A stretch of 64,000 nt of DNA from Patescibacteria group bacterium (GCA_041662965.1 JBAZRI010000005.1:6166-70165), one strand, 5' to 3'. Positions 1,138 to 61,128 are shown, numbered from the stretch's first letter. Numbers and translations are program-made. The notes: generated by a model not told the origin, from the letters alone.

Positions 1138-1157
1138 GTTTGATATATTATAAATAT

Positions 1158-2090
1158 ATGACTATCCGCCAAAAACTGGAAATAATCCAAAAAATGCTGG
1201 GGTTAACTCAAACTAAGCTAGCTGAAAAATTCGGCGTCTCTTTTGCCGCCTTTAATAGCTGGTGGACCGGCAAATCAAACCCCAGGCCAAAAATGCTAGC
1301 CGCTATAGACGAGCTCTTTTTAGAAGTAACCGGGCAGAAAATAATTTCCGATAATCAGCTTACGGCAAAAAAGCAAGCGCTTCTGAAAAAATCGGCCGAA
1401 CACAAAAATATTATAACTAAAATTTTAGATAACCCGGATATTCGCGATCAATTTATTTTAAAACTGACTTATCATAGCAACAGCATAGAAGGCAGTACGC
1501 TGACCGAACCGGACACGGCGGCCATTCTTTTTGACAACGCGGCTTTGCCTAATAAAAGTTTGACCGAACAGCTTGAAGCAAAAAACCACCAAACGGCTTT
1601 AAATTATTTATTTGAACATATCGCTAAAAAAGGAAAAGTCGACGAGGGCCTGGCGCTTAAACTCCACGGCATTCTTATGAATGGAGTTCGTCCGGATGCC
1701 GGCGTTTACCGCGATCACGCCGTTCGCATCACCGGCGTTAATTTGCCGACCGCGAATTATATGAGTATCCAAAAATTGATGCCTATAGCTATGGCTCCGG
1801 CCGCTCAAAAAACCAAAGACACTATTGCTCTATGCGCCGATGTCCATGAAAGGTTTGAGCAAATTCACCCTTTTTCTGACGGTAATGGCCGAGTTGGCCG
1901 CCTGCTTATGAACGCGATGCTGCTTGGCGCTAATTTTGCCCCGGCAATAATTCGCCAAGAACAAAAACAGCTTTATTATGCTTATCTTTATAAAGCTCAA
2001 ACTAAAAAAGACCATAGCCAATTAGAAGATTTCCTTTGCGAAGCTACTATGGCCGGATTTAAAATTTTGGAACGTACGGATGCTAGGTAA
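1158..2090 (+). CDS. Fic family protein with N-terminal XRE-type HTH domain
   Basis: Canonical Fic motif HPFSDGNGRVGR. SxxxEG inhibitory-helix-like motif (SNSIEG). N-terminus LGLTQTKLAEKFGVSFAAFNSW is HTH-like. Start moved to the second Met (track ORF starts at 1140). Confidence 0.9.
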   Translation: MTIRQKLEIIQKMLGLTQTKLAEKFGVSFAAFNSWWTGKSNPRPKMLAAIDELFLEVTGQKIISDNQLTAKKQALLKKSAEHKNIITKILDNPDIRDQFILKLTYHSNSIEGSTLTEPDTAAILFDNAALPNKSLTEQLEAKNHQTALNYLFEHIAKKGKVDEGLALKLHGILMNGVRPDAGVYRDHAVRITGVNLPTANYMSIQKLMPIAMAPAAQKTKDTIALCADVHERFEQIHPFSDGNGRVGRLLMNAMLLGANFAPAIIRQEQKQLYYAYLYKAQTKKDHSQLEDFLCEATMAGFKILERTDAR

Positions 2091-2149: not shown

Positions 2150-3205
2150 TTATTTAATCGCGTAATTTTTCGCCGCGAATTCGTATTGATCAATAAATAT
2201 TTTTTTAAACGGCAAAATTGAATTTAATTCGTAAAACGCCAGCATGGCTTCGCGGTATTCAACCTCATCAACACTGCGGTACGAAAGAGGCGCGCGATGA
2301 TGCGCCAGCAATATCGCGTTGGCCATTAAACGGGCGGTTCTTTTGTTGCCGTCTTCAAACGGCTGAATATAACCGATGCCTAATAGGGCGATTAGCGCTT
2401 TAGCGTAAGGCGATGGCATTTTTATTATGGCGGCGCTAAGGCTATCAACGGCTTCGCTGATTTGATGAAAATTATCAAGCGGCTGGTAAATTGAGCCGAT
2501 TACGCCGACTGGTTTTTGGCGCAAGCCTAAGCCGACATTTAAATTTTTAATCAAAATAGCCTGCAGTTCCTCAAGATTTTTTCTCGTCAGAGTGGAAAAT
2601 CGCGGCGTGTTTTCACGGATAAAGCTAAAAGCGTCTTTATGATTTAAAATCATCCGCGCTTCCTGCTTATTATGTCCGGGCGCCTCTTTATTTTCCAAAA
2701 TTAATTTTTCCGTATCTAAAAGCGTGTAAGTATTGCCTTCAATTTTTGATGACTTCCATGATAGCTCAATGATAAGCCGCTCTAACTCTTTTTTTTGAAT
2801 GGCCGGCGGTAAATTTTCCGTTCTCTCTTGGTATTGAGCGGTTGCCTTATCCAGCCGCTCTAACTCTTTAGCCGTGAAAATATCGGCCGGCAAATCAGGC
2901 AATAAATTAAAATTATAGCCTTTAAATCCATATCGCTTATCGGGTTCAGCCAAACAATACTCGCGAGCATCAATAGGCGCTAAAACCCTGCCCAAAACGC
3001 TTATTTTATATTGCGTAGCCGGTCCGGAACCGGAAACAACCAAAAGGCCCAGCTTAACCATTTGAGATAGGGCGCGTTTTATGGTAATTAAAGAAGTTTT
3101 GTCGCCAGGCTTAGACGCTTCAGTGTGAACGTCGGAAGACGACATAGCGCCTCCCTTAAGAACTATAAGCAATATTTGCTGATGTTTTTTGTTTAATTCA
3201 ATCAT
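2150..3205 (-). CDS. Fic family protein with N-terminal winged-helix-like domain
   Basis: Fic motif HPFEDGNKRTAR. SxxxEG motif (SSKIEG). 351 aa. Confidence 0.9.
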   Translation of the reverse strand: MIELNKKHQQILLIVLKGGAMSSSDVHTEASKPGDKTSLITIKRALSQMVKLGLLVVSGSGPATQYKISVLGRVLAPIDAREYCLAEPDKRYGFKGYNFNLLPDLPADIFTAKELERLDKATAQYQERTENLPPAIQKKELERLIIELSWKSSKIEGNTYTLLDTEKLILENKEAPGHNKQEARMILNHKDAFSFIRENTPRFSTLTRKNLEELQAILIKNLNVGLGLRQKPVGVIGSIYQPLDNFHQISEAVDSLSAAIIKMPSPYAKALIALLGIGYIQPFEDGNKRTARLMANAILLAHHRAPLSYRSVDEVEYREAMLAFYELNSILPFKKIFIDQYEFAAKNYAIK

Positions 3206-3315
3206 AATCGTATCATTTATGCTCTATAATCGTATCATATTGATACGATTATGGCAAGAGTATGCAGTTTTCTTACAACAAAAATCGCCAAAAAATCAAG
3301 CCTTGCCCTATAAAC

Positions 3316-3348
3316 AAAACGCCCCGTATTCCTACGAGGCGTTTTTAT
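3316..3348 (-). terminator. Intrinsic terminator after the small CDS 3368..3547; identical 33-mer to 982..1014
   Basis: aaaacgccccgtattcctacgaggcgtttttat, 20 nt downstream of the stop at 3368 on the minus strand. Confidence 0.7.
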
Positions 3349-3367
3349 GGCCTAAATTTTTATATAG

Positions 3368-9578: not shown

Positions 9579-12350
9579 TTATTTTTCCTCAACGATTATG
9601 CCGATTATTTTATCCTGATTTAAATCTTCGGTGATTAACCAGCCGTCCGCGCCGCCGCCTAAATCAACCGGATATTTCCAGATTGGCGCGAAGCCGCCGC
9701 CTAATTTTAATTCGCTGGTTATGGTGGATGAATTCATGCCCGGCTGTTTTTGCACTAACAGCGAATATGAATATAAATTTTTCTGTTCCGGATTTAAAAC
9801 CGCGCCGGCCTTGGTGATAAGCTGATCCGCGAAATTATCTCCGGCCGGCTCCGGCTTAGCGGTTAATTTAAAAGGCAGTTTATATTTTATATTTATTTCA
9901 ACGGTTTCCCCCGGGTCAAGCTGGGACCAGTTGGCGAAGACGGTTTTATTGAATTCATTATAAATTTTCGTGCCGGTGGCTTCGTCCGTTCGCGCCTGGC
10001 TTTCGGCGGCGAAAACTTCGGGATCATTTTCCAGGCCGGCCATTTCTTTATCAAAAAATATTTTATCCACCGGCTTAAAGCCGCTAACTTCCAATAATTC
10101 CGAGCCGAGCGGCACGTAAACTCTTAGCCAATTAACGTTTCTCACTCCGGAAAAAGGCTCGCGCTTAATCGCTTCATGAACGCGCCTAATAGTTAAATTA
10201 TTAATAATTGACCCGTCCGGCTGAATTTCGCTTTGCTGGATAATTTCCTGCTTGATTTTACGGTCGCTTTTTCCGCCGGCGATGTTAGTATTGATAACAT
10301 TTAAATAATCGCCGGCCGTATCTTTAATCCGGCCGCTCCAGCCCAAGTCATCGGCTTTAGCCTGTAAAGCTTCATCCGTAAAATAAAATAAAATATTTTT
10401 GCCGGCGAGCGACTCTTCAATCGCCTTAAATAACGGCCCTAAATTATCCTTAGTCAGCCGCTTAGGCAATTCTTCAATAATTTTATTCATTAAATCACCG
10501 ATGATTTTTTTCGGCTCTCTGGTTACGTCCGGTTTTTGCTCGGCCAGTTTTTGCGTTTCCATAAAGAAATTATCCGCGCCGATAGTTAAGCCGTATTTTT
10601 CTTGCAAATCCACCGGGCCGATTATGGCTAACAATTTTTCCATCACGGTTGGCGTAAAGCTAATAACGCCGTCAACGGTTGAACCGTCGGAATTTTCATA
10701 AAACCAAGCGAGCTTTTCCGCGCTGGTCGGCCAATCCGGCCACCAATTCGCGTCCCAAAAATGCCAATCGGCCCTAACCAGACTTAAAGGCTCCGGCGCT
10801 TTTATTTTTTTTAAAAAACCGGCATCAGTATCGTAGCTGCCGCCGCCCGGAACTTCAATATTTTTTATCTCGCCTTTGGAAAAATCTATTAAAGCAAAAC
10901 TGCCGATAAAGCCGCCCGAAGCGCGCAGTTCCGAGTTATTTTGAAAGACTAATAGATAGCGCTTAGCCGCGCTGGCGCCTAAAAAATTTCCGAGGCTATC
11001 GGCTAAACTGATAAATTCTTTTAAGCCGCGGCTAAGCTGGCCGGCTTTTTGTTTTAATAAAATAAATTCTGTTTGGTAATTTTCCGGTATAACCTCGCTG
11101 TTTATCTGGTCTAAGGTTTTATTTAATTCGCTTAAATCGGTTATGGCGTTATTTCCGTAAAAACTTAAATTCTTTAAAATGTTATTAACGTTATCGGCCC
11201 GGTAGCTAAACAGGCTCTCCATAGCCAAGCTTAAATTTTTTCCCGCGGCCGCGCTTAGCTCGCCGGCGCGCAAAATATTTTTGCCGGCGGCGGCCAGGCG
11301 CATATTTTTATCAGGCAAAACCGAAGCTAAAGCGAAAAGCAAACCGTTGATTTCTTTTAGCTCGTTTTGCGCGCTTAAAAAATTATCGCCGGCGCTTTTA
11401 AAGCCTTGGCCGGCTTGGTTAAAATTAAAATTCGCGGCCGATTGCCCGGCGGAAATTAAATTGCCAATGGCGCTCTCGCTGGCGCCTAAAACCTTGCCGC
11501 GAACCACGTTGATAACTTTATAATAGGTAAAAGCTTTAACCGGTAAAATTATGATAAATAATATTCCGGCGAAAATTAAAACCGGCTTTAAGTAGCCAAC
11601 TAACCGCCTGTCATTGCGAGGAGCGATAGCGACGAAGCAATCTCTTTCTTCGCCAACAGATTTCTTTTCCGCCGCCGCGAGCGACCGCAGGGAGCGAAGC
11701 AATCTCGCGAAGATTGAAACAGCCGCTAGCTGCTTAGCCTGAAGGTCTTGAGGTATATTTTTAATAACTTTATTTACTGCCGGGTGAAATTTAATAAATA
11801 ACAGATAACCCGCTTTTTTAATCGGCTTAATTATGGCTAAAAGCAAAAAGTAAGCCAGCCTTAAAATAAAGACGATTGTCCAGCCGGCCGCGTAGCAAAT
11901 TTTATAAAGCAGCCAATAAACTTTTTTTAGAATAAAATACAGCGCCTTGCCTAAAACGATAAGCGCCAGCTGATTAGATAAAACAACCAAGTAACTGTCA
12001 TTGCGAGCGACCGCAGGGAGCGCGGCAATCTTATTCTTTCTCTTTTTGTCATTGCGAGCTGGCTTTTCCTTTGTCATTCCCGCGAAGGCGGGAATCCAGA
12101 AATTACGGCTGCGAACCATTAAGGCTATAATATTCTTTTTGGCATTTTCACTCCCCGCCTTTAGTATTCCCTTGTAATCCACTTCCGCCAATTTTTCCAG
12201 CTTTTCTTCAAGACGTCCGACGTCTCCAAGACGTCGGACGTCTTTTGCTTTGGTTTCTTCTTTAGGCAGATTCTGCTTTAAATCAATAACAAAACGGGAC
12301 GATTTCACATCCGGGTTAACTTTTAAATTATGGGGATTATTTAAAGCCAT
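9579..12350 (-). CDS. DUF4012 domain protein (paralog 1) with repeat-derived N-terminal extension
   Basis: LLVFQNNSELRASGGFIGSFALIDFSKGEI and WHFWDANWWPDWP parallel the second paralog at 30561..32555. The N-terminal ~250 aa carries in-frame repeat modules. Confidence 0.8.
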   Translation of the reverse strand: MALNNPHNLKVNPDVKSSRFVIDLKQNLPKEETKAKDVRRLGDVGRLEEKLEKLAEVDYKGILKAGSENAKKNIIALMVRSRNFWIPAFAGMTKEKPARNDKKRKNKIAALPAVARNDSYLVVLSNQLALIVLGKALYFILKKVYWLLYKICYAAGWTIVFILRLAYFLLLAIIKPIKKAGYLLFIKFHPAVNKVIKNIPQDLQAKQLAAVSIFARLLRSLRSLAAAEKKSVGEERDCFVAIAPRNDRRLVGYLKPVLIFAGILFIIILPVKAFTYYKVINVVRGKVLGASESAIGNLISAGQSAANFNFNQAGQGFKSAGDNFLSAQNELKEINGLLFALASVLPDKNMRLAAAGKNILRAGELSAAAGKNLSLAMESLFSYRADNVNNILKNLSFYGNNAITDLSELNKTLDQINSEVIPENYQTEFILLKQKAGQLSRGLKEFISLADSLGNFLGASAAKRYLLVFQNNSELRASGGFIGSFALIDFSKGEIKNIEVPGGGSYDTDAGFLKKIKAPEPLSLVRADWHFWDANWWPDWPTSAEKLAWFYENSDGSTVDGVISFTPTVMEKLLAIIGPVDLQEKYGLTIGADNFFMETQKLAEQKPDVTREPKKIIGDLMNKIIEELPKRLTKDNLGPLFKAIEESLAGKNILFYFTDEALQAKADDLGWSGRIKDTAGDYLNVINTNIAGGKSDRKIKQEIIQQSEIQPDGSIINNLTIRRVHEAIKREPFSGVRNVNWLRVYVPLGSELLEVSGFKPVDKIFFDKEMAGLENDPEVFAAESQARTDEATGTKIYNEFNKTVFANWSQLDPGETVEINIKYKLPFKLTAKPEPAGDNFADQLITKAGAVLNPEQKNLYSYSLLVQKQPGMNSSTITSELKLGGGFAPIWKYPVDLGGGADGWLITEDLNQDKIIGIIVEEK
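11610..11709. repeat. Family-1 modules inside the DUF4012 CDS
   Basis: gtcattgcgaggagcgatagcgacgaagcaatctc and gcgagcgaccgcagggagcgaagcaatctcgcg, read in frame as ...CFVAIAPRND... and ...LRSLRSLAAA... Confidence 0.9.
11997..12099. repeat. Family-1 modules inside the DUF4012 CDS
   Basis: gtcattgcgagcgaccgcagggagcgcggcaatct, gtcattgcgagc, gtcattcccgcgaaggcgggaatccag, read in frame as ...PAFAGMTKEKPARNDKK...AALPAVARND... Confidence 0.9.
12211..12243. repeat. Tandem 15-nt palindromes agacgtcSgacgtct (each with two GACGTC cores) inside the CDS
   Basis: agacgtccgacgtct (12211..12225) and agacgtcggacgtct (12229..12243). A third copy lies at 39251..39265. Confidence 0.9.
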
Positions 12351-17747: not shown

Positions 17748-17770
17748 ATATTTTTTTACATTGTTTCTAC

Positions 17771-17869
17771 TGTCATTGCGAGGAGCTTCAGCGACGAAGC
17801 AATCTCACGTACTCGGAATTTAACCAGAGATTGCTTCGTCGCCCCGAGTACGGGGCTTCTCGCAATGAC
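17771..17869. repeat. Inverted pair of family-1 units
   Basis: gtcattgcgag-gagcttcag-cgacgaagcaatctc ... gagattgcttcgtcg-ccccgagtacggggctt-ctcgcaatgac. Confidence 0.9.
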
Positions 17870-21967: not shown

Positions 21968-21975
21968 AAGTATAT

Positions 21976-22149
21976 TGTCATTGCGAGAAGTGAATGAAGC
22001 GGAGCGTAATGAGCGACGAAGCAATCTCTGGTTTAATGGCGTGTGCGTGGATTTTTACCAGAGATTGCTTCGTCGCTGAAGCTCCTCGCAATGACAAATT
22101 AAATTTAAATTTAAAAAATGCACAAACCTGCCTACCGGCAGGCAGGTTT
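21976..22149. repeat. Inverted pair of family-1 units plus a cctgcc...ggcagg hairpin module
   Basis: gtcattgcgag...cgacgaagcaatctctgg / ccagagattgcttcgtcgctgaagctcctcgcaatgac; aaacctgcctaccggcaggcaggttt (22124..22149). Confidence 0.9.
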
Positions 22150-24501: not shown

Positions 24502-24525
24502 AAATAATTATATTAGCACCTCATG

Positions 24526-24624
24526 TTTGGGCTAAATTTATAAAATTTTCGTGCGAGGACTGTTTGAGCCCAAGTAATCTTGGGTGAGTTCCGAGAGGAG
24601 AAAATTTTATAAATTTAGCCCAAA
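24526..24624. repeat. Rod-like hairpin element, family 2, copy 1
   Basis: Perfect 25-bp arms tttgggctaaatttataaaattttc / gaaaattttataaatttagcccaaa. Cores gtgcgaggactgtttgag and gagttccgagaggag. Apical hairpin cccaag-taat-cttggg. Confidence 0.9.
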
Positions 24625-24643
24625 CTATATGTCGTAAATTTTT

Positions 24644-29229: not shown

Positions 29230-29245
29230 AAAAATTGTATATAAT

Positions 29246-29360
29246 ATTGGGCTAAATTTAGAAAATTTTCGTGCGAGGACTGCCTGCCTGCCGGCAGGCA
29301 GGTTTGAGGAGCTTTAAGCGACGAGTTCCGCAGTAGAAAATTTACTAAATTTAGCCCAAT
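29246..29360. repeat. Rod-like hairpin element, family 2, copy 2 (carries an extra inserted GC hairpin)
   Basis: attgggctaaatttagaaaattttc...gaaaatttactaaatttagcccaat. Core gtgcgaggactg followed by inserted cctgcctgccggcaggcagg, then tttgag...gagttccgcagtag. Confidence 0.9.
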
Positions 29361-29380
29361 TAATATGTAGTATAATAATT

Positions 29381-35302: not shown

Positions 35303-35403
35303 ATTGGCTTTAGCTTTTGTAAAATTTTCGTGCGAGGACTGTTTGAGGCCGAGTAATCTCGGCCGAGTTCCGCAGTAGAAAATTTACAAAAACTAAAGCC
35401 AAT
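35303..35403. repeat. Rod-like hairpin element, family 2, copy 3
   Basis: Different but complementary arms attggctttagcttttgtaaaatttt / aaaatttacaaaaactaaagccaat. Same cores. Apical hairpin gccgag-taat-ctcggc. Confidence 0.9.
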
Positions 35404-35424
35404 CTACTGCTGTTTAACGTTTAA

Positions 35425-41355: not shown

Positions 41356-42135
41356 TTAACTCCTTTTGTTAAACGCCAAAGTGGCGATGGAAACCACAAT
41401 GACCGAAAAAACCAGCAAGGCTAAAATATTTATCTGAACCGGATATAAAAATAATTTTTGCGCTAATTCCGCCGGAATGCCGTTTAAAATAATCTGCCGC
41501 ATAGCGTCAACGCCGTAAGTCAAAGGGTTAAGCCGGGAAAGCGCCGTCATCCAAATAGGCACGTTAGTCAAAGGGAAAAACGCGCCGGAGAGAAAAAACA
41601 TGGGGAAAATTAAAACCTGCATGATAATGCCGAAGCTTTCCGTGGTTTTCATGAGCGTGGCGATTAAAAGCCCCATGCCGGAAATGGCGAAAGCCAAAAG
41701 TATCATGAACAAAAATAGCTTAATAATTATTAAAATATTCAAATGAATGCCCATAAACGGCGCCAAAACCAATAAAAGCAGCGCCTGGGTTGAAGCCACG
41801 GTAACGGCGCCAAAAATTTTCCCCATAACGATTGAAGTTCGGGAAATCGGCGCCACTAAAATTTCTTTTAAAAAACCGAATTCGCGGTCCCAGACCGTGG
41901 AGACGGTGGAAAAAAAAGCAATGCCCATAACGTTCATGGCGATAATGCCCGGGTACATAAATTTCATGAAATCAATGCCAAAACTGCCTTTAGTCAACGT
42001 ACCGCCCAAGCCGGCGCCGAAAATCACTAAAAACATCAAAGGCTGGAGCAAGGTGGAAAATATCCTGGCCTTATCGCGGGTATACCTTATGGCTTCCCTT
42101 CTCCAAATTGTATAGATAGCTCTTAGTTCATTCAT
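41356..42135 (-). CDS. ABC-2 type transporter permease
   Basis: 259 aa with 6 TM segments and an N-terminus typical of ABC-2 proteins (IWRREAIRYTRDKARI). Confidence 0.8.
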   Translation of the reverse strand: MNELRAIYTIWRREAIRYTRDKARIFSTLLQPLMFLVIFGAGLGGTLTKGSFGIDFMKFMYPGIIAMNVMGIAFFSTVSTVWDREFGFLKEILVAPISRTSIVMGKIFGAVTVASTQALLLLVLAPFMGIHLNILIIIKLFLFMILLAFAISGMGLLIATLMKTTESFGIIMQVLIFPMFFLSGAFFPLTNVPIWMTALSRLNPLTYGVDAMRQIILNGIPAELAQKLFLYPVQINILALLVFSVIVVSIATLAFNKRS

Positions 42136-42148
42136 ATTAATAAAATAT

Positions 42149-42247
42149 CGTGTAAAGATGTTTGTTTTGAGCGCATACGAAATTGTAAAGATTTTTCTAA
42201 AAAATCGCCCAAATTTCGTCTAAGCGAAAAACAAACATCTTTACACG
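42149..42247. repeat. Rod-like hairpin element, family 3, copy 1 (between the ABC ATPase and permease genes)
   Basis: Perfect arms cgtgtaaagatgtttgtttt / aaaacaaacatctttacacg. Cores gagcgcatacgaaattgta and cccaaatttcgtctaagc. Confidence 0.9.
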
Positions 42248-42258
42248 GCAATTCTAAA

Positions 42259-43227
42259 TTACCGCCTCATGGCAATCCTCCGCCGCATCAATTCTTTATC
42301 CGAGGCTTCTTCCTTGCGGATTTTTTTGCCGGTTAAATTTAAAAATACGTCATCAAGCGTGGGTTTTCGTAATTCCACTGATTGAATTTTTTCTTCAAGT
42401 TCATTAAATAATTTGGGTAAAAAGTTATCTCCGTCTGTTACTTCAATTTTTAATTTATTATCAAAATTTTTAACGTTTAATTTAAATTTTTCTTCAATCT
42501 CTTGCTTTAATTTATCCAGATTAAGCGCGGCCAGGGTGATAATATCCCCGCCCACCATTTTTTTAAGATTAGCCGGCGTGTCTAAAGCCACGATTTTACC
42601 CTGGTCAATAATGGCGATGCGGTCGCAGTATTCGGCCTCGTTTAAATAATGCGTGGTCATGAAAATAGTCATGTCTTTTTCTTTTTTAAGCTTTAGAACA
42701 TACTCCCAGATATTAAATCTGGTCTGCGGATCCAAGCCGATAGTCGGCTCGTCTAAAAACATAACAGCCGGATAATGAATTAAGCCGCGAGCGATTTCCA
42801 GGCGCCTTTTCATGCCGCCGGAAAAAGTTTTTACGATATGATCGCGCCTGTCCCATAAATCAACTAATTTTAAAACTTCGGGCAGGCGCTCGCTAAAAAT
42901 CTTTTTATCTACGCCGTATAAATCGGCATGGAAATATAAATTTTCCTCGGCGGTTAGCTTATCGTCCAGCGAAGAATCCTGGAAAACCAAACCGATTGAT
43001 TTTCTGACCTGGTTTCTCTGCTTATTTACATCAAAACCGTTAATTAAAGCCTGTCCCGAATCGGATTTAAGCAAAGCCGCCAACATGCTTATGGTAGTTG
43101 ACTTGCCGGCGCCGTTAGGCCCTAAAAAGCCGAAAATCTCGCCTTTTTCAACGGAAAAAGAAATATTATCAACCGCGGTTAATTCGCCGAATTTTTTTGT
43201 TAAATTTTTTACTTCTATTATATTCAT
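42259..43227 (-). CDS. ABC transporter ATP-binding protein (DrrA-like, with C-terminal extension)
   Basis: GPNGAGKSTT, FSGGMKRRLEIARGL, LDEPTIGLD. Confidence 0.9.
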   Translation of the reverse strand: MNIIEVKNLTKKFGELTAVDNISFSVEKGEIFGFLGPNGAGKSTTISMLAALLKSDSGQALINGFDVNKQRNQVRKSIGLVFQDSSLDDKLTAEENLYFHADLYGVDKKIFSERLPEVLKLVDLWDRRDHIVKTFSGGMKRRLEIARGLIHYPAVMFLDEPTIGLDPQTRFNIWEYVLKLKKEKDMTIFMTTHYLNEAEYCDRIAIIDQGKIVALDTPANLKKMVGGDIITLAALNLDKLKQEIEEKFKLNVKNFDNKLKIEVTDGDNFLPKLFNELEEKIQSVELRKPTLDDVFLNLTGKKIRKEEASDKELMRRRIAMRR

Positions 43228-57019: not shown

Positions 57020-57048
57020 ATTCTACCCCACCGCCCTTTTTTAGGCAA
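57020..57048 (-). promoter_or_regulatory. Promoter-like TTGCCT-17-TAGAAT upstream of cysS
   Basis: -35 at 57043..57048 and -10 at 57020..57025, giving an ~86-nt leader. Confidence 0.5.
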
Positions 57049-57087
57049 GAAAAAGCCGTACGGAAATTAAATCTTCCGTACGGCCGT
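57049..57087 (-). terminator. Intrinsic terminator
   Basis: Minus strand GCCGTACGGAA-GATTTAA-TTCCGTACGGC followed by TTTTTC. Confidence 0.85.
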
Positions 57088-57102: not shown

Positions 57103-57561
57103 TTATTTTTCAATATACTCCACATTCGTAACTTCATTATACTCCGGTATTTTTGCCTCGGGCACGGAGTGGACTTTAAAGGTTGCTAACTCCTCTGCCC
57201 TTTTTAGTAAAAAATTCGGTAAAAACCCGACATATATCGGACTGTTCGGATCTTTATCATATACCGACAAGATACTTGGCTCATCGGCGCCTTTTAAATA
57301 ATATGCTCGATCAAATTTATAAGTTGTTCCCGGCTTTAATTCATTGAAGGGCACCAATTTGCCAAATTTATTATTTTGGCTAATTAATATCCCTGCTATA
57401 AAAGCCCCGGCCGCCGCACAGATGGTTGGAAAAAAAATTAAGAAGGGATTAATAGTTTCTGATGCCGAATTAACTAAAATTGACATCAATACTATACCAA
57501 TAGCCATAAGAATCGGAACTGCTAAACATAATATCTTTACCCCACCGGATAATTTTATCAT
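57103..57561 (-). CDS. Hypothetical membrane protein (2 TM plus soluble domain), SD-led
   Basis: 152 aa. GGAGG 5 nt upstream of the ATG. Confidence 0.6.
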   Translation of the reverse strand: MIKLSGGVKILCLAVPILMAIGIVLMSILVNSASETINPFLIFFPTICAAAGAFIAGILISQNNKFGKLVPFNELKPGTTYKFDRAYYLKGADEPSILSVYDKDPNSPIYVGFLPNFLLKRAEELATFKVHSVPEAKIPEYNEVTNVEYIEK

Positions 57562-57708
57562 TCTTTCCTCCTTTTTTGCCTTATCGGCGTTTTTATGTTT
57601 ATAATAGCTTGTTATTTAAAAAGACCGCGCATTACTTTTCACAATTTCGCCCGCAGTTAGTATTACGTACGGGCAAAAAGTAAAAATTAATATGTTGTTA
57701 TATTATTG

Positions 57709-57849
57709 ATTGGGCTAAATTTATGAAATTTTCGTGAGATTACTGCAGTTAGGCTTGGAAAAATTGTTTTTATCGCGCATACGAAATTGTAGCGACCGCA
57801 GGGAGCCCAAATTTCGTCTAAGCAAAAAAAACAATTTTTCCAAGCCTAA
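57709..57849. repeat. Nested repeats: degenerate family-2 left half, then a full family-3 element with a family-1 module at its apex
   Basis: attgggctaaatttatgaaattttcgtgagattactgcag, then ttaggcttggaaaaattgttttt...gcgcatacgaaattgta-gcgaccgcagggagc-ccaaatttcgtctaagc...aaaaacaatttttccaagcctaa. Confidence 0.9.
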
Positions 57850-57894
57850 CGTATAACTACAATATTATTTCAATTTTCCTACCGCTTATTTTTG

Positions 57895-57957
57895 TATCCC
57901 CGCCTCCTCAGTGAAATATGCTCTGCATTTCACGGGGCTAGCCGCGGGGATGACAAA
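57895..57957. repeat. Nested GC hairpin ending in ggggatgac
   Basis: atccccgc...gtgaaat-atgctctgc-atttcac...gcggggatgac. Confidence 0.75.
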
Positions 57958-57966
57958 AAATATATA

Positions 57967-60900
57967 TTACAAATACTTCTCCGGATCTACGCTCGCGCCA
58001 TTTAGCAATACTTCAAAATGCAGATGCGCTCCGTTGGTATATGGTCCGGCGCCGGGCGTACCCGGCTTGCCGCCCGATAAGCCGATAATACCGCGCTGTT
58101 TAACCTGGTCGCCGACTTTAACGTCAAGGTGCGATAAATGGGCGTATCTGGTTATTAGGCCGTTGCCGTGGCTGATGGCGATATAACTCGCCTGATCGCT
58201 TGAGCCGTCGACAACTTCAATGACCGTGCCGGCGCCGGCCGCCTTGACCGAAGTGCCTTGGGATACGGCTATGTCTATGCCCGTATGTTCGCCGACAGAA
58301 TCTTTATAAGGATAATTAGTGTCATGCCAGCCGTAAGTTATGGCGCCGCTAACCGGCTTAATAAACGTTTTCGCCGTACCATTATTAGGCTGGCCGTTAT
58401 CTTCGCTGGCGCCGGTAGCGATGGTGAATTTATAGCTGTCAGTCGGGTCGCCGTTGATAAGCGCGCTGACTTTTGAAGATTTGCCTCGCGCCTTAAAATC
58501 GCTGAAATAAATATCCATATTTTTATCGGCGATTAATTCGCTGGTTTTAACATGGACATCAAAGACGGCTTCTTCTCCGGCCTTAACTACAAAGCCGCCT
58601 AAGCTGATTTTATTGGCGCCGGCTACCGGCCGGGTAATCGTACTGCCGGCGGTTTTTTGCTTATCGCGATTAATTACTTTTAAATTGCTGTAGCCTAAGC
58701 TATAGGTTAATTCCCGGTCAGCCGAATTAATGGTAATTGACTCTAACTTTAAATCTTCAATGCCTGAATTTTTAACTTTAAAGCCGGCGACGACATTGTC
58801 ATTTTCGCCCTTGGTTACGAAGCCTTCGGTAACTTTGGTAATCTCCGCCGAGGCCGGGCCGAAAGCGGTCTTATGGCTGTTAACATTTAAATTATTAACC
58901 ACAGCCGGTATTAAAGAATTATTGTTAACCGCGGCTAAATTGCTGATCGCCAACTGGACTTCCGAAGCTTTAAGGTCGGTTTCCGTATCGGCGTAAACTT
59001 TTATTTCCGCTCTGGCGCCTGACTTTAAAATATATTTAAAGCCGGCGGCGGTTAAGTCATTTGAATAAGGATTTTTAATCTCTTTAATTTTGGTTGAACC
59101 GATATAAAACTTTAAATTGCTGAAGCCGTTGTCAAAAGAAATCACGCCCGAGCTAGCGCCGCCGCGGGCAAAAGTCAAATCGGTTATTTTAGTATCGCCG
59201 CCGGCCGCGCCCTCTACGATAAAGCTGGCGATCTTAATATTTTTTTGCCCCTTGATAAAAGCCTGATCGCCTAAGTCATTATTAGGATAAAGATAAAGGC
59301 TGGATTTACTGATCATTAATTTAGCGCCGGCGATATTAACCGTATCGGAGAAGGAAGCGCCGCTCCCAATGCTATAATCAAGGCTGTTTAAAATTATTTT
59401 GTAATAGCCGCCGTTGGACACGCTCTCCGGCACCTTAGTGACTAAAGCAACAACTAAATTTTGCTTGGCCGCTAAATTCAGTTCGCCTAAATCAACGCTA
59501 GCTTTGCCGTTATTAAATTCATCGCCGTCAAAATTATCATAAACTTCGCCGCTATTATAATTAACCAAGTAGATAACCCCGGTTAAATTAGGCGAGGCGC
59601 TATTTTTTTCCAAACTAAAAGTCAAGCGATTTAAGCTTATTTTTTGGTTATTATTCCTGATTTCAAAATTGCCGATAATTACGCCGGTCTGCTTGGTGAA
59701 AACTTTATTATTGGCCTTTAGCTCTTTGGCCGTAACGCCGACCGCTTCCCTTTTAATGGTTATATTTTCTTCAAGATTGGCTATACTGACATACAAGCTA
59801 TAGTTTCCCTGGGAGCTTAAAACTTTAGCTTCTTTAAGATAAAGATTGATCAGCTTGCCGTCGCCGCCGATAACATCGGCGGAAACGGTGAAAGTTTCAT
59901 CGCCGCCTTTTTTGATTTTATAATTGTTTAATTTAAAAACTATTTCCTTATCGCCAGCCGCTTCGGAAACGGTAGAAATAATTTGGCCGGCTTTATTTTT
60001 TAACTTGAAGTTATTTAAACTGGGCACGATAACCTTGCTCTGATTGGAAAATTTTAATTCTTTGACGAAAACATCGGATCGGCTGGAAGTTTCAGCTAAA
60101 TTGAATTTACCGATATTTTTTTCCGTTGAGCCGATAATCGCCTGATTATTATTAATGCCTAAAGACTGCTCGCTAACGGCAACGCTTTCTAAAACTCCGA
60201 CTCCGGAGATAAGCTTAAAGGTTTCTCCGGCTAAAGGAAAGGCGCCTAAAGCTTTGGCGCCAGTAATACTCGCGGCCTGGCTGATAACGACCGAGAAGGC
60301 CTGATTAGCAACCTCGGCCGAGTTATCGTTAAAATCTACATAAACTTTTAATTTTTTGGTTTCACCCGAATTAATAACCATCGGCTTATTCGTAAAATTA
60401 AAAATCGCCTGCCTGCCATGCAACCTAAAATAAGCCGGATATTCAATATCGCTTTCATCGGTTAAATAAAATTTTTTGATTACTTCTTGATTAAAAAAGC
60501 CTTTTAAATCTAAAACCAAATTTGTAATTTCCACCTGTCGGCCGTCAGCTTTTAAATTAAAAACAGCCGTTAAATTATCTTGCGTGCCAATAGCCAAATA
60601 ATCAGGCCCCGGACTGGAAGCGTCTAAAGCAACCGACAGCGGATTATCGCTATAATCTCCGATTGCGCCGGCGGCTTTGAAGTCGGCCGTATCATATTCG
60701 GCTAAGTCGGCCTGGGCGATTGTTACGATGTCCGGCCATTTAAAGCCTGAATCAATAAACTGCTGGGCCGATTCAATTACGGCTTTCCGGCCGTTAGCAA
60801 TATAATAAACGGCTTTATCGTTACCGGCTTTAACCAGTTTAACTTCCGGCCATTTATTTAATTCCGCCTGGCTGATAACTTTAATATCGCTCCATTTATT

Positions 60901-61128
60901 GCCATAAGCTAAAAAGGCCTTAGCGCTTACATAAGATTTTTTAACTCCGCGCGCGTGATCTAAATAATATACCGTTGGATTATCGGCAGTTTTAACCTGT
61001 TTAATTTCAGAATTGACGCCATAAGCCGCCCCGGCGATTTGCGCGTTAATAGCTAAACAACCGATAATAACAGTAATAATTACGGCAAAAATGAATAATT
61101 TTTTAGCTAATATTAAAGTATTAAACAT
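57967..61128 (-). CDS. Large secreted protein with C-terminal M23 (LytM-type) metallopeptidase domain
   Basis: HTGIDIA...GTVIEV...RYAHLSHLDVKVGDQV...GAHLHFEV. N-terminal signal/TM segment. Confidence 0.85.
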   Translation of the reverse strand: MFNTLILAKKLFIFAVIITVIIGCLAINAQIAGAAYGVNSEIKQVKTADNPTVYYLDHARGVKKSYVSAKAFLAYGNKWSDIKVISQAELNKWPEVKLVKAGNDKAVYYIANGRKAVIESAQQFIDSGFKWPDIVTIAQADLAEYDTADFKAAGAIGDYSDNPLSVALDASSPGPDYLAIGTQDNLTAVFNLKADGRQVEITNLVLDLKGFFNQEVIKKFYLTDESDIEYPAYFRLHGRQAIFNFTNKPMVINSGETKKLKVYVDFNDNSAEVANQAFSVVISQAASITGAKALGAFPLAGETFKLISGVGVLESVAVSEQSLGINNNQAIIGSTEKNIGKFNLAETSSRSDVFVKELKFSNQSKVIVPSLNNFKLKNKAGQIISTVSEAAGDKEIVFKLNNYKIKKGGDETFTVSADVIGGDGKLINLYLKEAKVLSSQGNYSLYVSIANLEENITIKREAVGVTAKELKANNKVFTKQTGVIIGNFEIRNNNQKISLNRLTFSLEKNSASPNLTGVIYLVNYNSGEVYDNFDGDEFNNGKASVDLGELNLAAKQNLVVALVTKVPESVSNGGYYKIILNSLDYSIGSGASFSDTVNIAGAKLMISKSSLYLYPNNDLGDQAFIKGQKNIKIASFIVEGAAGGDTKITDLTFARGGASSGVISFDNGFSNLKFYIGSTKIKEIKNPYSNDLTAAGFKYILKSGARAEIKVYADTETDLKASEVQLAISNLAAVNNNSLIPAVVNNLNVNSHKTAFGPASAEITKVTEGFVTKGENDNVVAGFKVKNSGIEDLKLESITINSADRELTYSLGYSNLKVINRDKQKTAGSTITRPVAGANKISLGGFVVKAGEEAVFDVHVKTSELIADKNMDIYFSDFKARGKSSKVSALINGDPTDSYKFTIATGASEDNGQPNNGTAKTFIKPVSGAITYGWHDTNYPYKDSVGEHTGIDIAVSQGTSVKAAGAGTVIEVVDGSSDQASYIAISHGNGLITRYAHLSHLDVKVGDQVKQRGIIGLSGGKPGTPGAGPYTNGAHLHFEVLLNGASVDPEKYL

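Follow-up and report, generated by a model that had tools for sequence, protein, structure and literature searches.

Two rod-like hairpins in a 64,000-nt stretch of DNA from a Patescibacteria group bacterium (the window) have the same core, while their outer arms look unrelated and are nevertheless complementary within each hairpin. As either a strong constraint on pairing or the insertion of a conserved core into the loops of pre-existing hairpins could have produced this pattern, the two alternatives offered in an initial annotation of the window, we were interested in which of them describes the hairpins and what kind of element they represent. The element family of the two window hairpins is labelled family 2 here, and fetched loci carry L-numbers.

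Results

Two window copies with a common core

The left core GCGCATACGAAATTGTA and the right core CCCAAATTTCGTCTAAGC were each found exactly twice in the window, once per hairpin and on the plus strand in every case (Table 1), and no additional match to either was present in the window when up to three mismatches were permitted. For the second core, CCCAAATTTCGTCTAAGC, none of 100 shuffles yielded two matches. The annotated arms are perfect inverted repeats in both copies, and the core segments ACGAAATT and AATTTCGT pair with each other in all folds, as had been proposed. Folding gave a single long rod for copy 1 (RNA −44.5 kcal/mol, z = −9.1; DNA −30.8 kcal/mol, z = −8.2) and for copy 2 (RNA −50.7 kcal/mol, z = −9.2; DNA −32.7 kcal/mol, z = −8.6), and an equally good fold was obtained from none of the shuffles. 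Copy 1 indeed splits an ABC transporter gene pair, occupying a 123-nt gap between the ATPase and the permease genes. The window is contained in the ENA metagenome contig ERZ27249449:k141_709498. Nearly all genes of the window lie on the minus strand, and its proteins identify Candidatus Falkowbacteria as the closest relatives.

Table 1. Positions of the two family-2 copies, their parts and adjoining features in the window
Feature	Position	Strand	Basis or remark
Copy 1, whole element, subfamily A	42148..42248	+	Folds; covariance model 109 bits; empty orthologous site
Copy 1 left outer arm CGTGTAAAGATGTTTGTTTT	42149..42168	+	Perfect pairing with 42228-42247
Copy 1 left linker GA	42169..42170	+	Opposite GA at 42226-42227; possible tandem G.A loop
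Copy 1 left core GCGCATACGAAATTGTA	42171..42187	+	Exact match
Copy 1 variable apical hairpin AAGATTTTTCTAAAAAATCG	42188..42207	+	Fold
Copy 1 right core CCCAAATTTCGTCTAAGC	42208..42225	+	Exact match
Copy 1 right outer arm AAAACAAACATCTTTACACG	42228..42247	+	Inverted repeat of left arm
Copy 2, whole element, subfamily B	57748..57850	+	Folds; covariance model 98.7 bits
Copy 2 left outer arm TTAGGCTTGGAAAAATTGTTTTT	57749..57771	+	Inverted repeat
Copy 2 left core	57775..57791	+	Exact match to GCGCATACGAAATTGTA
Copy 2 apical module GCGACCGCAGGGAG	57792..57805	+	Typical of subfamily B; common to GTCATTGCGAG...GAAGCAATC repeat family
Copy 2 right core	57806..57823	+	Exact match to CCCAAATTTCGTCTAAGC
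Copy 2 right outer arm AAAAACAATTTTTCCAAGCCTAA	57827..57849	+	Inverted repeat
ABC transporter ATPase gene	42259..43227	-	Upstream neighbour of copy 1
ABC-2 permease gene	41356..42135	-	Downstream neighbour of copy 1
M23 peptidase gene	57967..61128	-	Copy 2 located downstream of it, 116 nt past the stop codon
Half of decayed family-1 element adjoining copy 2	57707..57745	+	Orthologous to one arm of L056 element

Several simpler identities were searched for. In the whole window only a tRNA passed the Rfam threshold, and the element regions gave only hits resembling miRNA precursors, with 12-29 bits against thresholds of 39-230 bits. An intrinsic terminator was rejected, as neither strand has a T run after the hairpin; the real terminators of this genome consist of short GC stems and T runs. 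An alternative terminator-like fold is available to copy 1 only and is no general feature, and a search for a promoter belonging to the element gave nothing above shuffle expectation. Guide- or spacer-like arms directed against phages were dismissed as well, neither arm being present in IMG/VR. Comparison of the approximately 40 ORFs of the window with Pfam revealed no transposase, integrase or reverse transcriptase, and no autonomous version, in which a gene would lie between the left and the right core, was detected in approximately 390 kb of window and loci.

Distribution and anatomy of the family

Pattern scans and a covariance model trained on 11 copies led to 45 distinct copies (44 plus L057), all in Patescibacteria MAGs or metagenomes. 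When the GTDB species genomes were scanned for ATACGAAATT-N(10-40)-AATTTCGTCTAA, 13 hits were obtained, ten of them true copies and all of these in Patescibacteria MAGs; the remaining three (L005, L009 and L010) are devoid of the rest of the core and of arms and were discarded as chance matches. The metagenome scan gave 37 further copies in 36 contigs. The covariance model recovered every copy; its additional matches were copies whose cores have diverged (L008:7426-7532 and L057:4636-4785) as well as decayed remnants (L004:3539-3607 and around L012:6970-7060). One MAG, JAUSEG01, harbours at least six copies on four contigs. No family-2 element was found in viral contigs or in GenBank phages, and the literature searched contained no published description of the motifs or of REP/MITE elements in these phyla. 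The family was thus found only in Patescibacteria/CPR genomes, including Falkowbacteria.

The elements are 100-125 bp long, with a single copy of 150 bp, and their rod is composed, from the outside inwards, of an outer stem, a linker loop, G-C/C-G pairs, a 4x4 internal loop, an 8-bp helix, a small loop and an apical hairpin. In the outer stem, which measures 20-30 bp, the four pairs nearest the core are T-A in almost all of the 45 copies, and three or four pair types occur at the positions beyond. Two subfamilies differ in the linker loop, which is GA opposite GA in subfamily A (linker GA/(C|T)GA) and ATC opposite AGG in subfamily B. The internal loop is fixed as GCAT opposite CTAA, the 8-bp helix is ACGAAATT/AATTTCGT, and the small loop above it is GTA opposite CC(C). 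Together with the G-C/C-G pair, these parts form an asymmetric core of approximately 50 nt that is essentially invariant, although part of this invariance reflects ascertainment because the scans demanded most of the core. The apical hairpin varies in sequence and length, leaving an apical segment of 16-38 nt between the 16-nt cores, or of 14 to approximately 60 nt by the 17/18-nt core boundaries.

The arms of the two window copies had been called entirely different, which is correct for this pair and does not extend to the 45 copies, among which arms are homologous within each subfamily. Examples are ...AAAGATGTTTGTTTT in window copy 1, ...AAAGATGTTTATTTT in L012, GCCGGACAAAGCTTTTGGTTTT in L006 and GCCGGACAGGGCTTTTAGTTTT in L024 for subfamily A, and TTAGGCTTGGAAAAATTGTTTTT in window copy 2, TTAGGCTTGGGGAAATTGTTTTTT in L043 and GCGAGGCTTGGGTAAATTATTTTT in L057 for subfamily B. 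The window arms look unrelated because they come from different subfamilies, A for copy 1 and B for copy 2. Near-identical inner arms (AAGATGTTTRTTTT) accompany the core at unrelated loci, namely at ABC transporter, TyrRS/racemase and Wzy_C genes.

The elements lie within operons, 2-20 nt from the neighbouring genes, which are functionally unrelated and have no common theme; among neighbour proteins, only orthologous housekeeping genes recur across loci. With respect to co-directional neighbour genes, 21 copies are in opposite and seven in the same orientation (two-sided binomial p ~0.013, for copies that are not fully independent), a bias that is real in this sample and not absolute. Nesting was observed twice, as a 20-nt palindrome within L013 and as copy 2 within a decayed family-1 element.

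Compensated changes in the stems

Of the two alternatives raised at the outset, a strong pairing constraint on the stem is supported by covariation, shuffles and RNAalifold. In the alignment of 11 copies, 98% of the cells are paired, and both partners have changed in 22 of 27 outer-stem pairs. When the 3' partner was slid by 1-3 columns, the paired cells fell to 33-54%, and the observed values were reached by none of 500 shuffles of the 11 copies; RNAalifold predicted the same structure independently. Among 993 outer-stem pairs from 44 copies, 941 (95%) are Watson-Crick, 25 are G.T and 17 are A.C. Viewed by position, the inner T-A pairs are fixed and the outer positions, each with three to four pair types, are 86-100% Watson-Crick (at least 93% except at position 15). 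Double changes that keep Watson-Crick pairing in both copies account for 78% of the positional differences between copies. The 8-bp helix covaries too (ACGAAATT/AATTTCGT, ACAAAATT/AATTTTGT, ATAAAATT/AATTTTAT), with G-C changed to A-T in L008(-), L040 and L047, two compensated pairs in L057 and one uncompensated change (A.C) in L026. One outcome named in the annotation as refuting, arms that are diverged versions of one terminal inverted repeat with ordinary mismatches, holds in so far as the arms within each subfamily are diverged versions of a single arm, and fails with regard to the mismatches, as the divergence is compensated.

Closely related copies show the same behaviour. L035 and L046 are orthologous, with flanks that are ~92% identical (~8% divergence), and the six positions at which the elements differ make up three compensated pairs, one of them a matched 1-nt indel on both arms; uncompensated changes are absent. 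Window copy 2 and L057 differ by seven compensated pairs. Relative to its ortholog L022, L007 has four extra transitions, all giving G.T. The compensated-only differences between orthologous copies point to an in-place constraint or a conversion process, a pattern as compatible with a structure selected by the host as with a selfish element.

An apparent strand-specific excess of wobble pairs, with ~14 G.T against one A.C on the plus strand of the 11 copies, was dropped under symmetric rules, and an early count of 32:8 for the 44 copies came from an extension rule that favoured G.T. Symmetric stem rules gave G.T to A.C ratios of 11:7 and 25:17 (p = 0.28). The stems are therefore essentially Watson-Crick at the DNA level, without the G.U enrichment expected of a selected RNA, and the matched indel together with the missing wobble intermediates favours a process at the level of DNA.

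Presence and absence at orthologous sites

The junction of the ABC ATPase and permease genes was compared between the window and eight relatives with ATPases of 85-91% identity to the window protein. In L053 and L054 the junction is empty and consists only of TAA-tttatatt-ATG, an 8-nt spacer without a hairpin, compared with the 123-nt gap (42136-42258) that holds family-2 copy 1 in the window. A 'family 1' hairpin (AAAATTTTCGTGCGAGGACTG...GAGTTCCGCAGTAGAAAATTT) is located there in L059 and L061, a 135-nt inverted doublet of the GTCATTGCGAG...GCAATCTC repeat in L052, and another palindromic family in L051 and L060. Hence, five states exist in nine genomes, two of which are empty while seven hold one of four unrelated hairpin families, and the junction is either an insertion hot spot or a site that favours some hairpin. 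Among the relatives, the four different families have inserted there independently. As the empty site has no hairpin, the whole family-2 element, arms included, is the inserted unit. By a criterion set in the initial annotation, the comparison of orthologous loci thereby refutes the proposal that a core enters the loops of pre-existing hairpins, the empty site of copy 1 being a hairpin-less spacer. The search for arms occurring as empty hairpins without the core was likewise negative for the arms of either copy in the window and 58 loci.

At the site of copy 2, a 152-aa ORF (57103-57561, minus strand) lies between the element and cysS. It has no homologue but itself in 5.8 billion proteins, and orthologous loci were therefore compared by way of the M23 peptidase gene. 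The spacer of the ORF is only 88-517 nt in L056-L058, and the ORF may be spurious or very young, within repeat-derived sequence. The M23-cysS spacer of L058 is 88 nt long with only an ordinary terminator, that of L055 holds only a GTCATTGCGAG doublet, and in that of L056 a family-1 element is preserved intact. The spacer of L057 carries a family-2 copy whose core has diverged and whose arms differ from those of copy 2 at five positions, all compensated. None of these orthologous spacers contains a hairpin made of the copy 2 arms. Since the half element adjoining copy 2 is orthologous to one arm of the family-1 element of L056, copy 2 lies within a family-1 element that has decayed. A terminator and promoter block upstream of cysS, formed by a GC-stem hairpin followed by TTTTCTTGCCTAAAAAAGG...GGTAGAAT (window 57020-57085, minus strand), is kept in L055, L056 and L057 despite the rebuilding of the spacer by repeat insertions.

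No conserved terminus was detected among the copies. The 44 flank pairs contained no consistent direct repeat as a target-site duplication, although the filled-versus-empty comparison involved relatives of 85-88% identity and AT-rich sequence, in which a duplication of 2-4 bp (e.g. TTTA) could escape notice. A derivation of the arms from the target flanks was rejected, as the arms of copy 1 have no similarity to the empty-site sequence.

Other repeats and features of the window

Family 1 is a rod-like hairpin repeat with the core AAAATTTTCGTGCGAGGACTG ... GAGTTCCGCAGTAGAAAATTT, a variable apical hairpin and differing yet complementary arms, and so follows the same design logic as family 2. Its window copies at 24524-24629, 29244-29365 and 35303-35405 (plus strand) fill the operon junctions GT2/epimerase, GT1/MreB and FtsX/ABC, and a half copy is located at 57707-57745; the arms of the copy at 35303 are unlike those of the copies at 24524 and 29244. 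In relatives, it was found at L056:4813-4983 and in L059 and L061:2069-2193. A very widespread unit of approximately 40 nt, the GTCATTGCGAGGAGC...GCGACGAAGCAATCTC repeat, often forms inverted doublets (REPIN-like) and uses the same junctions as the other families (window 11608-11644, 17770-17811 and 21975-22096; L052:2978-3116; L055:4827-4961; L057:4977-5105). The apical module of subfamily B, GCGACCGCAGGGAGC (57792-57805), is also the centre of the GCGAGCGACCGCAGGGAGCGAAGCAATCT units of the GTCATTGCGAG family (11677-11705 and 12003-12031), and this common module suggests exchange of modules or nesting between repeat families.

The 20-nt perfect palindrome CCTGCCTGCCGGCAGGCAGG (window 29283-29302 and 22127-22146) is a recurrent insert of other hairpin elements, making up the apical part of a family-1 copy in the window and, in a different genome (L013), interrupting a family-2 copy between linker and core. 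Directly after the stop codon of the M23 peptidase gene, a GTCATCCCCGC...GCGGGGAT(A/C)C palindromic repeat is present (window ~57895-57955; minus strand sense GTCATCCCCGCGGCTAGCCCCGTGAAATGCAGAGCATATTTCACTGAGGAGGCGGGGATAC), which also occurs in the relative L056:4712-4777. The palindromes at the ABC junction of L051 (2972-3065) and L060 (2203-2295) belong to a fifth type (CTCGCAACTCG... / ...CGTTACGGG...GCGAG) with a weak single-stranded DNA fold (z = −1.4). Three near-identical canonical bidirectional terminators, AAAAACGCCCCGT...ACGGGGCGTTTTT, at 975-1020, 2102-2147 and 3309-3354 flank two Fic-domain genes (1140-2090, plus strand; 2150-3205, minus strand).

Discussion

A mobile palindromic element as the probable explanation

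From the inserted unit, the turnover between relatives and the compensated stems, we consider it probable, at roughly 60%, that the window copies are two members of a dispersed, non-autonomous palindromic insertion family of the MITE/REPIN-like kind that is recognised through its folded core. What is inserted is the complete element with its arms, the targets being very short, AT-rich spacers between genes, and at orthologous sites of close relatives it is present, absent or replaced by other palindromic families. Several copies exist per genome, in both orientations and accompanied by decayed remnants, and the sequences of the outer (20-30 bp) and apical stems are free to vary, yet remain Watson-Crick complementary. 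The element may act as a folded single strand or as a cruciform, in which the fixed internal loops and the 8-bp helix would serve as a handle for a protein encoded elsewhere. Such a protein could be a transposase or recombinase specific for single strands or hairpins, comparable to REP/RAYT, IS200/IS605 or the integron attC system. The arms would then need only to pair and would not be sequence-specific termini, which would explain the missing conserved ends and target-site duplications. Their complementarity may be kept by selection on transposition-competent lineages, by intrastrand template switching that perfects quasipalindromes, or by both. Weighing against this explanation are the failure to find a mobilising enzyme among the window ORFs or a full-length autonomous relative in approximately 390 kb of window and loci, the missing conserved terminus and clear target-site duplication, and the purely compensated differences between orthologous copies.

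A different reading takes the element for a structured RNA that is selected by the host, either as a hairpin acting in cis in operon transcripts (an RNase III or processing site, an mRNA stabiliser or a cistron decoupler) or as a multi-copy small RNA with protein-binding loops, and retention of the element at junctions would be due to a benefit of the hairpin itself. The covariation, which is very strong in outer, inner and apical stems, the invariance of the asymmetric internal loops and the restriction of differences between orthologous copies to compensated changes would all be expected from such an RNA; the location inside operons, 2-20 nt from genes, also agrees with it, and some hairpin occupies the ABC junction in 7/9 genomes, where any hairpin could be favoured. 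RNA stems, however, normally tolerate and accumulate G.U, whereas the stems of family 2 are 95% Watson-Crick, with G.T (25) barely commoner than A.C (17; p = 0.28). In addition, the element occurs in both orientations relative to transcription (21:7), so that the asymmetric core would be read as two different RNAs, its presence varies in close relatives, with unrelated families replacing it at identical sites, and decayed remnants exist. As the neighbour genes are without a common functional theme, Rfam gave no match beyond sub-threshold hits resembling miRNA precursors, and ordinary GC-stem/T-run terminators are used elsewhere in the genome, we regard a host-selected RNA as unlikely, albeit the strongest of the rivals considered.

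Two further readings concern the origin of the arms. If a mobile core of ~55 nt entered the loops of pre-existing, unrelated hairpins, the arms would be host sequence, in agreement with the dissimilar arms of the two window copies and with some nesting into other hairpins (the 20-nt palindrome of L013, and copy 2 in a family-1 remnant). Against this stand the empty orthologous site of copy 1, an 8-nt spacer without hairpin, the orthologous spacers of copy 2, which have no hairpin from its arms, the absence of arm-only hairpins from the window and loci, and the homology of arms within subfamilies, where they recur with the core at unrelated loci; we therefore give this reading almost no credence. 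New outer arms might instead be made at each transposition, donor flank bases being taken along as a 5' overhang and copied by fold-back fill-in, so that the ends renew themselves. The sharp differences between the outer arm segments of window copy 1, L012, L032 and L050, which share inner arms, the perfect pairing, the arm length of 20-30 bp and the lack of a conserved terminus or target-site duplication would suit such a process. Nevertheless, GCCGGACAAAGC-like outer arms are common to L006, L024, L036, L041, L013, L017 and L004 of subfamily A, a homology in many copies that agrees with gradual divergence, the arms of copy 1 are unlike its own target flanks, and no arm was matched to a donor flank, which makes renewal at each transposition quite improbable.

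Comparison with known systems

Among known systems, REPINs, which are mobilised by RAYT/TnpA-REP, resemble family 2 in being intergenic, non-autonomous hairpin repeats of ~100 nt with many copies per genome, in which conserved blocks are combined with segments varying by compensatory changes and which are presumed to work as folded single-stranded DNA. REPIN hairpins carry compensatory changes, for which selection among transposition-competent lineages has been proposed (PMC3116915), and compensatory changes in the variable part of the hairpin are also present in family 2. In REPINs, however, the conserved blocks are two terminal REPs, each a small palindrome, and the central spacer is variable, whereas in family 2 the conserved blocks are central and not self-complementary, a variable paired arm of 20-30 bp lies outside, and no invariant GTAG-type 5' tetranucleotide exists. 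An identity with REPINs was rejected since the two inverted REP-unit ends are absent and the conserved blocks are internal; a RAYT (Y1 HUH transposase) gene was not found in the 64-kb window.

Correia/NEMIS, ERIC/IRU, RUP and the Rickettsia RPE are bacterial MITEs or intergenic palindromic repeats, and family 2 is similar to them in size class and in occupying short intergenic spacers, frequently within operons, as well as in presence/absence polymorphism, both orientations, nesting and decay. Unit insertion with empty sites in relatives, a mark of classical MITEs, was likewise found (L053 and L054). Classical MITEs have conserved terminal inverted repeats matching a parent IS, plus target-site duplications. 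In family 2, by contrast, conservation is lowest at the termini, and neither a parent IS nor a duplication was found in window and loci; without a conserved terminus, parent IS or clear target-site duplication, family 2 is not a classical MITE.

The attC sites of integrons are the best-known DNA sites that are recognised as a folded single strand. Conservation in these sites concerns pairing and a small number of unpaired or extrahelical positions, while the sequence varies and apical structures differ in length; they have conserved R''/R' boxes at the hairpin base, flank gene cassettes and occur in cassette arrays beside an integrase gene. Family 2 elements differ in being solitary, with variable stem bases and no integron integrase nearby in the window. 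The boxes R''(RYYYAAC)/R'(GTTRRRY) were tested, and the GTTAGGC...GCCTAAC ends of copy 2 were rejected as attC-like R boxes, being in the wrong order and subfamily-specific. As R boxes, a cassette array and an integrase are absent, family 2 is not an attC site.

Intramolecular template switching at replication makes imperfect inverted repeats perfect (PMC7202029). Such quasipalindrome correction would yield arms with perfect Watson-Crick pairing, including the matched indel between L035 and L046, but it is a mutational mechanism and not an element family. Template switching alone would erase the mismatched loops of the core, so that an opposing constraint on the core would be needed. By analogy, family 2 appears to work most like REPINs and intergenic palindromic repeats and, conceptually, like attC, in that a structure would be recognised.

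Implications

Genomes of CPR/Patescibacteria are tiny and tightly packed, and still the window holds at least five palindromic repeat families in spacers of 8-100 nt. Family 2 inverts the usual rule of miniature elements by having a conserved centre and free ends, and this inverted conservation, the clean compensation and a hot spot common to several families make it worth following up. On the practical side, such repeats will fragment CPR assemblies and can lead to spuriously extended ORFs, as in L052, where gene calling carried the permease ORF on through an inserted element.

A more far-reaching and rather speculative interpretation, which we hold doubtful at present, is that structure-defined mobile DNA hairpins form a new class in Patescibacteria, in which the folded core would be recognised by a putative enzyme, the ends would be set by the limit of pairing, unrelated families would share AT-rich operon junctions, and the arms would be re-symmetrised by fold-back synthesis or template switching. 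If this were true, the elements would be a natural system of self-perfecting palindromes. Family 2 offers a good natural system for asking how hairpin DNA comes to be recognised and mobilised where gene sets are minimal, by what means palindromes remain perfect, and whether such insertions tune expression within operons.
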